Shown here: one piece after another, positions 6,626-9,656 of the stretch
Layout: every line of letters starts with the position of its first letter
Position numbering within the stretch: the stretch's first letter is position 1
IMG/VR virus record: IMGVR_UViG_3300049988_000124
Location: 1 to 64,000 of that record
Length of the DNA stretch: 64,000 nt
Strand: one strand, 5' to 3'
Source of the DNA: a virus
Taxonomy: Duplodnaviria > Caudoviricetes
The notes under the pieces: generated by a model
Seen by the model: the letters and a program-made list of their open reading frames with translations, nothing else
Told to the model about the DNA's origin: nothing
The model's database searches: none
Made by a program: the position numbers and the translations under genes

Positions 6626-6892
6626 TCATATCGTCGGATTGTAGTCGTTCACCACGCAGGTACCGGTGACGTAGTCCTGATGGATATTACCCTGATCATC
6701 CTGGATACGCACGGTTAGGCCTACGTCATCGTTGTTCATGACCTTGACGTGATCCTTGCGGTAGTAGGTCTGACCGAGTGATGTCTTGCACGTTATCGTG
6801 CTACCGTACTCTTGACCGATTATCCGAGGACCACACGCGGTTGCGGTTCCCAGTACACAGCAGAGCACTAAGAGTTTGAAAGAGGTTCTCAC
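6626..6892 (-). CDS. Putative lipoprotein
   Basis: MRTSFKLLVLCCVLGTATA-C: basic N-terminus, hydrophobic stretch, lipobox-like Cys. Confidence 0.6.
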   Translation of the reverse strand: MRTSFKLLVLCCVLGTATACGPRIIGQEYGSTITCKTSLGQTYYRKDHVKVMNNDDVGLTVRIQDDQGNIHQDYVTGTCVVNDYNPTI

Positions 6893-7269
6893 TCGAAAAC
6901 TACTCCTGCTTCCCTGATGATAGAGGCTCGAAACATACCTAGAAGTCGATGAATCTCAGCCACCTGCATAGTTGGGTCACCAGAGCCCATGACGATTTCA
7001 TTGGCGAGAGCTTCTTCCACGGTCCGGAATGGTAGTTTGAGCTTCCCACGAACGTGCTCTTCCACGATAGTGATTTGTGGATCGATCTTCTTCAAGATCT
7101 CGGAGCGATTGTTGTAAGCTTCCCGCAAGCTTTCCTCAGACTGAAGATCATCGTTGCGATACTTGGCAGTCACTCCGTGATCCTGGAGTGCCTTCTCGAT
7201 GATCATACCGATGACACCTTTACCGGTACACGGAAGACCGGATACAGTGACGGTGAGTTCATTTGCCAT
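6889..7269 (-). CDS. Hypothetical protein
   Basis: 126-aa ORF with 4-nt overlap with the next gene and SD AGGA. Confidence 0.6.
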   Translation of the reverse strand: MANELTVTVSGLPCTGKGVIGMIIEKALQDHGVTAKYRNDDLQSEESLREAYNNRSEILKKIDPQITIVEEHVRGKLKLPFRTVEEALANEIVMGSGDPTMQVAEIHRLLGMFRASIIREAGVVFE

Positions 7270-7290
7270 GAGCTATCCTTTTCTTGTCAA

Positions 7291-7342
7291 TGGTGCCCCC
7301 GGTCGGACTCGAACCGACACTCCAGAGGAAGGAGATTTTAAG
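7291..7342 (-). pseudogene. 3' half of interrupted tRNA-Leu(UAA) (anticodon loop to CCA)
   Basis: Minus strand reads CTTAAAA TCTCC-variable arm-GTCGG TTCGAGT CCGAC CGGGGGC ACCA. The acceptor 3' strand is complementary to GCCCCCG at 7963-7969. Confidence 0.85.
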
Positions 7343-7805
7343 GTATGTCCCAAGATCGAAACTCTACTACAACTTGCCCACTGTGGCTATCGACACTGTA
7401 GGTGGTCTCATGGCGAGTGATGTTCTTAGATACCAACCCTGCACATTCTTTAGAACATACCGGACCCGTCCTTCCCTGGTTCCAACAGTGCTTGACATCT
7501 TTCATCAGTTTGGTTGTCGGATTTTTGCAAACGGGACAAATGAAAGAGTAGGTCTCTGCTTCTCGACCAAGTTGAGCTTTTTCAGAATTCTCAACTCTGG
7601 AGAGCACCTGTAGATTGTTAGGATCGTCGTTGGTAAGATCCTCATCGACATGGTCGCAAGTCTCATCACCAACTAGTTCTCTACCAAGCTTTTGCTCAAG
7701 AAGATGTTTGGGATATGACTTGGTTTGCATTCTACCATCGTCGTGTTTAATAACGACGTGCTGTCTACCGTCTTTGCGATAGTACGGTCCATAGATCTTA
7801 GTCAT
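7338..7805 (-). CDS. HNH homing endonuclease (HNH_3-like) with C-terminal Cys zinc finger
   Basis: DHVDEDLTNDDPNNLQVLSRVENS is the HNH motif. CPVC...CSKEC follows. The stop TAA coincides with the outer tRNA anticodon. Confidence 0.9.
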   Translation of the reverse strand: MTKIYGPYYRKDGRQHVVIKHDDGRMQTKSYPKHLLEQKLGRELVGDETCDHVDEDLTNDDPNNLQVLSRVENSEKAQLGREAETYSFICPVCKNPTTKLMKDVKHCWNQGRTGPVCSKECAGLVSKNITRHETTYSVDSHSGQVVVEFRSWDIP

Positions 7806-7940
7806 ACTCTACGACTCGCGAAAATGGTGGGCATGGTCGGATTCGAACCGACGATGTGATCATTAATCCGTGACCGATTTTAAGTCGGATGCGTTTCAAC
7901 CATCTTCGCCACATGCCCTCAAAGAGTTGTAGAGTATGAC
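7801..7940. repeat. 17-bp inverted repeat (16/17) enclosing the complete tRNA-Leu
   Basis: gtcatactctacgactc (7801-7817) versus gagttgtagagtatgac (7924-7940). Confidence 0.9.
7825..7918 (-). tRNA. trnL: tRNA-Leu(UAA), complete, long variable arm, encoded CCA
   Basis: Acceptor GGGCATG/CATGCCC; D-arm GCG...CGC; CCGA-CTTAAAA-TCGG; T-arm GTCGG TTCGAAT CCGAC; ACCA end. Confidence 0.92.
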
Positions 7941-7969
7941 CCAGCGCCTACCAATTACGCCACGGGGGC
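7941..7969 (-). pseudogene. 5' half of interrupted tRNA-Leu
   Basis: GCCCCCG TG GCGTAATTGGTAGGCGC TGG: acceptor 5' strand and a Leu-type D-arm. It pairs perfectly with CGGGGGC of the 3' half about 600 nt downstream. Confidence 0.85.
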
Positions 7970-7976
7970 ATCTGAC

Positions 7977-8369
7977 TCACTCTTCGCTAGCATTCTCGAG
8001 GGCTTTATGTCCCATGACTTCTGCTAGCTTAGTGTAAGCAGCTCGTTGCTCTTCTGACCAGACCACGCCCTCAGCAAAAGCCGTCAGTATCTCAGTAACG
8101 GTGTTCTTGGGGAGAAGAACCACTTCTTCCTGGCTGTTGACGAGTTCATTGGAAACAGTTGGACCGAACTTGTTCCTGACAATCACACCACCAACCAGAA
8201 CAAGGTGCGAGGTGAAAAGTGCTTTCCCGTCAGTGAACGCGTTATATTCGTCAGCGTTCTTGAAGTGAAGGACCTTGACATCCTTGGCGAACTGGTCGCC
8301 CAGAAGTTTACCCAAGGTCATCTCTTCGTCGCGGGAGTGTTCGATTTCAAGTTCATGAAACTTTGGCAT
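7977..8369 (-). CDS. Hypothetical protein
   Basis: 130-aa ORF with SD AAGGA. Confidence 0.6.
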   Translation of the reverse strand: MPKFHELEIEHSRDEEMTLGKLLGDQFAKDVKVLHFKNADEYNAFTDGKALFTSHLVLVGGVIVRNKFGPTVSNELVNSQEEVVLLPKNTVTEILTAFAEGVVWSEEQRAAYTKLAEVMGHKALENASEE

Positions 8370-8386
8370 ACGTTATCCTTTCTCTA

Positions 8387-8995
8387 TCACCCCCGAGGGA
8401 GATCAATGGCAGTGGGATCACGATCAGTCTTATCCAAGACGTGCTTGAGATAATCACGCGTACGCCGGATGGCGTAGAGATCATCGTCGCTCAGCTCTGG
8501 ATCATCACTGTAGATAATCGCACTGGTCTGGAAACGACCTTCCTCGTCCATGGATGCGCCGACATCCTCGCACGTGAAGTTATCGTTCAATCGCCCAAAG
8601 ACATCCTCGGGCAGAGTGTTGGGATCGTAGCCGAAGCCTTCGAAGCGACCCTCCATGATTCCCTGGCGGATCGGGGCAAAGGTGGCAATCGCCATCTCCA
8701 TGCACAGCGGAATGCTGCGCAGATCCTCGATCGATTCCAATGCTCGGAAGTAATCAGGATTAAGGAGGGCGTTGACGGTGCTGCGGATCTCATGGGCGAC
8801 CTGATCCACAGGCTGTACGTAGCGCATGAAGAACTCATTGCGCCGCTGGTCGAACTCGCTGCCGAAAATACTGGCGTGTCCCAGATCGTTGATCTGGCTA
8901 AACACGTCGCTGCTCACTCGGCTACCCAAGAGGGAACCGAGCGTGGGCATCATGCTTCCCGGGCTAAGAGTGATGGTGTCGTGAATGCGGGCCAC
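8387..8995 (-). CDS. Conserved phiKZ-like core hypothetical protein
   Basis: 202-aa ORF with SD AAGGA. Lies in the chimallin/RNAP block as in related phages (from memory). Confidence 0.6.
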   Translation of the reverse strand: MARIHDTITLSPGSMMPTLGSLLGSRVSSDVFSQINDLGHASIFGSEFDQRRNEFFMRYVQPVDQVAHEIRSTVNALLNPDYFRALESIEDLRSIPLCMEMAIATFAPIRQGIMEGRFEGFGYDPNTLPEDVFGRLNDNFTCEDVGASMDEEGRFQTSAIIYSDDPELSDDDLYAIRRTRDYLKHVLDKTDRDPTAIDLPRG

Positions 8996-9648: not shown

Positions 9649-9656
9649 GTAATATA
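9649..9656 (-). promoter_or_regulatory. phiKZ-type early promoter box TATATTAC
   Basis: Exact 8-mer about 30 nt upstream of the 9618 start. Confidence 0.65.

Follow-up and report, generated by a model that had tools for sequence, protein, structure and literature searches.

The stretch of DNA analysed here, which we call the window, covers the first 64 kb of a jumbo-phage record of 307.8 kb with 52% GC. Our analysis concerns one tRNA locus in this window. All features of the locus are on the minus strand, and an open reading frame of 130 amino acids (8369-7977) lies upstream of them. The features are as follows.

7969-7941, minus strand: 5' relic of the resident tRNA-Leu(UAA), called tRNA A below, tRNA positions 1-28 (sequence, empty-site contig, ARAGORN)
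7940-7924, minus strand: 5' arm (arm 1) of the inverted repeat, GUCAUACUCUACAACUC; the cassette opens with these 17 nt (inverted-repeat search)
7923-7919, minus strand: spacer UUUGA, 5 nt, from arm 1 to the 5' end of tRNA B, the RNase P site (sequence, fold)
7918-7825, minus strand: tRNA-Leu(UAA), called tRNA B below, 94 nt, the replacement tRNA carried by the cassette (ARAGORN; Rfam RF00005, 57.3 bits)
7824-7818, minus strand: spacer UUUUCGC, 7 nt, after the CCA of tRNA B (sequence, fold)
7817-7801, minus strand: arm 2, GAGUCGUAGAGUAUGAC, spanning -12 to +5 around the HNH start, with the AUG at 7805-7803 (repeat search, ORF call, fold)
7805-7338, minus strand: HNH homing-endonuclease gene, 155 amino acids (match to PHROG 14913)
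7342-7291, minus strand: 3' relic of the resident tRNA A, positions 32-76 (sequence, empty-site contig, ARAGORN)

The 5' relic of tRNA A retains the 5' strand of the acceptor stem (GCCCCCG), the D arm, T26, G27 and G28. The 3' relic consists of the anticodon loop CUUAAAA, UCUCC, a short variable arm, the T arm, CGGGGGC and ACCA, and its acceptor strand is perfectly complementary to the one in the 5' relic. A 408-nt metagenome contig from a different study (X4), belonging to a near-identical phage, contains the same site without the insert. Its two parts are about 99% identical to 8242-7941 and 7342-7241. Between 7941 and 7342 it has three letters, TCT in plus-strand and AGA in minus-strand orientation, where the window has 598 nt. 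ARAGORN recognises the joined sequence as a canonical 84-nt tRNA-Leu(UAA) with the anticodon stem GGAGA/UCUCC. Because the empty-site contig restores tRNA A, 7940-7343 is a mobile insertion that has replaced positions 29-31 of tRNA A. Filled and empty alleles both occur in nature, and the target is intact in the empty one. Free-standing HNH and GIY-YIG endonucleases such as mobE of Aeh1 (in nrdA) and SegB of T4 (in the tRNA region) likewise show presence/absence polymorphism with a clean empty site, and they too lie beside or inside a conserved target gene. The cassette in the window differs from mobE and SegB in two respects: it interrupts a tRNA gene, which is useless in pieces, and it carries a diverged replacement tRNA with the same anticodon.

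The cassette thereby interrupts the anticodon stem of tRNA A. Along its 598 bp, arm 1 comes first and tRNA B second; arm 2, together with the start region, is third, and the HNH gene follows. The left boundary falls between 7941 and 7940, arm 1 begins at the first base of the cassette, and the HNH reading frame runs to the final base of the insertion. Of the 135 nt ahead of the reading frame, only 12 lie outside the arms and the tRNA. Both arms are inside the cassette; hence, the hairpin travels with the element.

tRNA B has the same anticodon as tRNA A and is the only tRNA-Leu in the genome, with the anticodon stem UCCGA/UCGGU as against GGAGA/UCUCC in tRNA A. We infer that it replaces the broken tRNA A and escapes the nuclease. 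The HNH protein would cut the empty-site allele but not its own: the insertion destroys the GGAGA stem, and the stem of tRNA B reads UCCGA. A search of a limited library of the literature returned no precedent for a nuclease cassette with a replacement tRNA, which is not proof of novelty. The variable arm of tRNA B is 20 nt long and of fixed sequence, and the same type of tRNA is found at 15 other loci. Its variable-arm sequence, ACGGAUUAAUGAUCACAUCG (7873-7854), is identical in 15 phage tRNA-Leu genes (loci L005-L024) that differ in their acceptor, anticodon and T stems.

Three other readings of the insert were rejected. First, it could be a group I intron. Rfam gives no Intron_gpI match in 6800-8500 even at E values of up to 1, and the same search does detect a group I intron in the relatives L012 and L006. 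Second, tRNA A could be a functional spliced or split tRNA. Its halves are lost piecemeal in relatives (the 5' half alone is left in L005 and L010, the 3' half alone in L007), which is why we treat the half-tRNAs as relics. Third, the arms could be the ends of a MITE or another transposon. The arms in the window and in L010 are unrelated, and there is no clear target duplication.

The HNH protein matches PHROG 14913 (HNH) with an E value of 3e-19; the match to Pfam HNH_3 is weak and below the cut-off. The motif ETCDH...NLQVLSR..N and two Cys pairs are invariant among 22 aligned sequences, and the catalytic motif of free-standing HNH homing endonucleases (DH...N...N) is present. There is an in-frame TAG 6 nt upstream of the ATG, and the N-terminus M-T-K-I-Y-G-P-Y aligns with the N-terminus that is conserved in the family (21 homologues). 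Hence, the gene has a single usable start, the ATG at 7805-7803. At its other end the frame is closed by the target. Within 7343-7338, the stop codon TAA (7340-7338) is the anticodon of relic A, and the last codon, CCT, uses C32 and U33 of the relic tRNA. The same closure of the frame by the target tRNA is seen in L007 and L001.

Two apparent signals within the gene were discarded. The tail of the gene resembles a degenerate 5' half of a tRNA, with an Rfam score of 19 bits (E 0.86) and an ARAGORN call that appears only when the threshold is relaxed. The closest homologues conserve this part as protein sequence (SWEID), and the likeness is therefore probably due to chance. The first coding bases, ATGACTAAGATC, resemble the anticodon stem-loop of tRNA A, GAGACTTAAAATC, as if they were an operator of the I-TevI kind, but the resemblance is not conserved in relatives.

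We found 41 homologues of the HNH protein, the close ones sharing 53-68% identity, and compared their contexts. The family abuts a tRNA-Leu(UAA) in about 30 phage contigs. Among the IMG/VR loci found with the family profile, 19 of 23 have an abutting tRNA-Leu(UAA), and one more (L047) has a tRNA-Leu(UAG), which lies upstream of the gene. As in the window, tRNA-Leu(UAA) is directly upstream of the HNH gene in L005, L007/8, L010, L026, L039 and L046. In L001, L002, L027, L029 and most IMG/VR loci it is immediately downstream of the reading frame or overlaps its end. Relics of 5' half-tRNAs lie farther upstream in L005, L010, L026 and L039, and L007 has a 3' relic after the stop codon. The recurrent association with tRNA-Leu(UAA), together with the relics, leads us to conclude that this HNH lineage is specialised on phage tRNA-Leu(UAA) genes and that the site has been invaded repeatedly.

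Some loci carry several layers of this history. Two successive, nested 3' halves of tRNA-Leu(UAA) follow the HNH gene in L028 (499-700), and in L027 a 3' half-tRNA follows a complete tRNA; these stacked relics are traces of serial invasions. The contigs L004 and L005 are the same except for a second HNH_3 gene in L004 (1665-2441, 258 amino acids, opposite strand), which replaces most of the cassette tRNA B. Here one nuclease has invaded the rescue tRNA of another. In L012 (1212-1409) and L006 (538-735) the upstream tRNA-Leu(UAA) contains a group I intron in its anticodon loop (Rfam 62 and 58 bits), which may be another way of gaining immunity to the nuclease. In a search for closer relatives suited to a covariation analysis, nothing but the tRNA matched in phage GenBank records, and there was no match in IMG/VR with single-protein or N-terminal patterns and none in genome contigs.

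The first-pass annotation of this DNA had singled out a stem that would enclose a whole tRNA in its loop, with the HNH start codon in one arm and the partner arm on the far side of tRNA B. Both positions are right, that of the start codon to the base: arm 2 (7817-7801) contains the AUG at 7805-7803, and arm 1 (7940-7924) lies across the tRNA at 7918-7825. The arms are 17 nt long, 16/17 (94%) complementary and 106 nt apart, and the sole mismatch is A7928 opposite C7813. The loop between them consists of 5 nt, the 94-nt tRNA B and 7 nt, so that the spacers add up to 12 nt. In the whole genome (307.8 kb), only seven inverted repeats reach at least 16/17 when loops of up to 150 nt are allowed. By our own arithmetic (308,000 x 148 x 52/4^17), chance would yield about 0.14 such repeats per 308-kb genome.

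The annotation had also proposed folding this region as a check. When 7975-7770 is folded with RNAfold, the 17-bp stem is present in both the minimum free energy structure and the centroid, with the tRNA folded within the loop. The leader-trailer stem of 17 bp with one mismatch is extended by 3 bp and stacks on the acceptor stem, giving a nearly continuous series with the acceptor and T stems (12+4+3+7+5 bp). The predicted energy of the leader-trailer duplex around tRNA B is -34 kcal/mol, with a z-score of about -5 relative to shuffled sequences. The 7-nt spacer that follows the CCA of tRNA B is U-rich and single-stranded in the fold and could be a site of 3' processing. These results confirm that the stem is real and non-random, that it is predicted to form and that, when formed, it would bury the HNH AUG. 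Part of arm 1 (7926-7935) is also complementary at 9 of 10 positions to GUAGUAGAGU at 7361-7370, near the end of the HNH reading frame. This pairing is much weaker than that between the arms and probably arose by chance.

What does the stem do to the nuclease gene? Constraint folding suggests that opening positions -12 to +5 costs 13.6-18.1 kcal/mol when arm 1 is present in cis and 7.6-8.4 kcal/mol when it is not, the latter for RNAs that begin at the mature 5' end of the tRNA or after the tRNA. Arm 1 in cis would thus add about 6-10 kcal/mol to the opening of the start region. For the AUG region alone (-3 to +5), the cost falls to 2.7-4.7 kcal/mol without arm 1. In a comparison of 24 family members, the start region of the HNH gene in the window is the most occluded, at 14.1 kcal/mol, with most of the others at 2-9 kcal/mol. 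Within its own genome, an opening cost of 14 kcal/mol corresponds only to about the 92nd percentile of 385 ORF starts that have a Shine-Dalgarno sequence. The purine run that the first-pass annotation placed upstream of the AUG exists in part: there is an AGAG 1 nt from the AUG, but there is only this AGAG, which makes a poor Shine-Dalgarno sequence by the phage's own standard. Words of the AGGAGG type (AGAGGAGG) are enriched in the intergenic DNA of the phage, and the HNH gene is without one.

In our preferred explanation the 17-bp helix silences translation of the HNH gene and is built into the cassette itself. We give this reading a probability of about 45%. Transcripts that enter from upstream phage genes would carry both arms. 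tRNA B would fold and bring its own ends together, and arm 1 would then pair with arm 2. With the AUG and the weak SD-like AGAG buried, the nuclease would be made at a very low level, as is usual for phage homing endonucleases. Expression would require the loss of arm 1. One may speculate about two routes to this loss: RNase P could cut at 7918/7919 and the leader fragment could then decay, or a transcript could start inside the loop.

The precedent named in the first-pass annotation is well documented. Hairpins that sequester the ribosome binding site control I-TevI, I-TevII, I-TevIII, SegB and mobE of Aeh1 (PMC2988022). In these T-even systems a stem in read-through transcripts likewise hides the start of the nuclease gene, and the defining feature, a stable stem that includes the Shine-Dalgarno sequence and/or the start codon, is predicted in the window as well, with arm 2 covering -12 to +5. 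The likeness extends to the setting. Both the T-even systems and the cassette in the window have a selfish nuclease gene embedded among useful genes, and SegB also lies in a tRNA cluster, that of T4 (PMC2988022). There are three differences. First, the T-even hairpins are local and have small loops, whereas the loop in the window is a whole 94-nt tRNA that is predicted to be functional. Second, the HNH gene in the window has no consensus Shine-Dalgarno sequence, unlike the T-even genes under hairpin control. Third, in the T-even systems a late or middle promoter, located within the 5' arm or downstream of it, overcomes the hairpin, whereas no promoter is detectable within the hairpin of the window.

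This third difference bears on one of the two routes. A promoter starting inside the loop had been suggested in the first-pass annotation, and our scans for sigma-70-like sites and for the phage motif TATATTAC do not point to one: neither is present between the arms. There is no terminator on this strand either. TATATTAC is a conserved promoter-like motif with 24 copies in the genome, all on the minus strand and 19 of them intergenic, set in the longer conserved context TCA..N12..CGnTATATTACynnnnTGA. None of the 24 copies lies between 7940 and 7806; the nearest are at 9656 of the window (1.7 kb upstream of the cassette), 9982 and 14031. The motif presumably resembles the core of the phiKZ early promoter, and its copies are likely to be early promoters of the phage's own RNA polymerase. 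Late promoters of phiKZ start at the G of TATG (PMC4666361). A late start of this type at the TATG in arm 2 was rejected, as a transcript starting at that G would not contain the AUG.

The other route would make tRNA processing the trigger. RNase P and 3' cleavage would sever the loop, arm 1 would be lost and the HNH gene would become translatable, which would couple synthesis of the nuclease to maturation of the rescue tRNA. This proposal, made in the first-pass annotation, is a special case of the silencer, and our confidence in the two overlaps and should not be added up. The layout is suggestive. Arm 1 and the RNase P site are separated by 5 nt, there is a U-rich single-stranded stretch after the CCA, and without arm 1 the predicted opening cost of the AUG region drops to the 2.7-4.7 kcal/mol given above. 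The order of events would also be sensible for the element, with the rescue tRNA matured before the nuclease. Nevertheless, we regard such a trigger as unlikely, for the following reasons. The arms alone form a duplex of -22.8 kcal/mol, so after the cuts they would still be paired in trans; hence, decay of the leader or unwinding by a helicase would also be needed to free the AUG. The 3' product would have a 5' monophosphate and no Shine-Dalgarno sequence. Finally, the arrangement is not conserved among relatives.

How far it is conserved follows from a comparison of leader and trailer at all loci that have a tRNA of the type of tRNA B and in all cassettes with a tRNA upstream of the HNH gene. 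A significant repeat is present only in the window cassette and in L010. Seven of the nine cassettes with a tRNA upstream of the HNH gene (L005, L007, L014, L026, L039, L046 and L047) have no significant repeat, and there is no leader-trailer pairing at eight loci that have the same type of tRNA but no HNH gene. The repeat in L010 is a perfect, AT-rich one of 16 bp (16/16), AAUAUAUCAAGUAUUA / UAAUACUUGAUAUAUU, around the same tRNA and abutting its CCA end. It is unrelated in sequence to the arms in the window, and its helix falls short of the L010 AUG by 20 nt and of the GGAG there by 7 nt. Hence, burial of the start codon is specific to the phage in the window and is not conserved among the relatives compared. 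The arrangement in L010 resembles that of seg43(25) in Aeromonas phage 25, where a very stable hairpin lies immediately upstream of the ribosome binding site of this homing-endonuclease gene without covering it (PMC2988022); the hairpin of seg43(25) has no tRNA in its loop. That two independent long helices have formed around the same tRNA suggests selection for pairing rather than for a particular sequence.

One could also argue that the selected function concerns the tRNA and not the nuclease. The helix would then be an element for tRNA maturation or insulation, a leader-trailer stem that closes tRNA B off from the relic and the mRNA flanks. It may offer a site for a double-strand-specific nuclease like RNase III, as in rRNA operons, and its overlap with the HNH AUG would be incidental, or the cut would inactivate the HNH message. 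What the window and L010 share is indeed a long helix around the tRNA and not the burial of an AUG, and the almost continuous stacking of the helix on the acceptor and T stems would fit a role of this kind. In the same genome, a tRNA-Asn has an acceptor stem that is extended by 10 bp. In rRNA operons with their leader-trailer helices, in tRNA-mRNA co-transcripts such as that of tufB in E. coli and in MALAT1-mascRNA, RNase III, P or E cuts out a structured RNA, and the cuts set the ends of the neighbouring RNA. As in the window, the structured RNA lies within a longer transcript. To our knowledge, none of these systems uses a flanking helix to mask a downstream start codon. We nevertheless consider it unlikely that maturation explains the helix. 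If it did, the helix should not be missing from the eight loci with the same type of tRNA but no HNH gene, nor from seven of the nine HNH cassettes. Moreover, paired leaders usually hinder RNase P, and 17 bp are short for RNase III.

The extension of the tRNA-Asn (301901-301991) is a leader-trailer pairing of 10 bp, with arms at 301901-17 and 301975-91 (17 nt, 16/17). This gene encodes no CCA and has no nuclease nearby. Hence, such helices may serve tRNA maturation.

It might also be that the repeat has no function and is the scar of a repair event. At a locus that is cut repeatedly, template switching during the repair of a double-strand break could leave an inverted duplication. The locus certainly looks like a hot spot of recombination, with half-tRNA relics in the window, L005, L010, L026, L027, L028 and L039 and a second HNH gene inside tRNA B in L004 that is absent from L005. 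Arm 1 starts exactly at the cassette junction, and the repeats are sporadic and unrelated in sequence. A scar is quite improbable all the same. First, on reading the sequence we see no microhomology at the putative switch points. Second, two independent repeats (16/17 in the window, 16/16 in L010) both bracket the tRNA exactly. Third, the cassette is otherwise stripped of spare sequence. And however the repeat arose, its RNA would fold into the helix all the same, with consequences for translation.

Homing endonucleases have to be expressed just enough to spread without harming the host phage, and silencing by a hairpin is a known answer to this problem. If the silencer reading is correct, the unusual point is that the loop of the hairpin is a whole tRNA, one that compensates for the gene broken by a very compact mobile cassette. 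The wider context may be the more notable aspect: a homing endonuclease disrupts a tRNA gene for which it supplies the replacement itself, and both alleles exist in nature. In its logic the cassette resembles synthetic cleave-and-rescue drives. Taken to its end, this likeness would make the cassette a natural cleave-and-rescue element, in which the HNH protein destroys the resident tRNA-Leu(UAA), the cassette carries an immune replacement, and the stem ties translation of the nuclease to maturation of the rescue tRNA. We think it rather unlikely that all of this holds. If maturation of the tRNA does release the nuclease, the cassette would be a naturally occurring counterpart of engineered cleave-and-rescue gene drives. 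We know of no earlier case in which RNase P or tRNA processing acts as a translational switch, and this one, if true, would be the first. Even otherwise, the filled and empty natural alleles offer a clean, testable system for studying how selfish nucleases colonise phage tRNA genes.

The genome also encodes a permuted two-piece tmRNA of the alphaproteobacterial type (302915-303245, which is L030:3116-3446, minus strand; RF04321, 73.5 bits). It adjoins a cluster of five tRNAs and is closely preceded by an inverted repeat of 16/17 (303279-95 / 303417-33).
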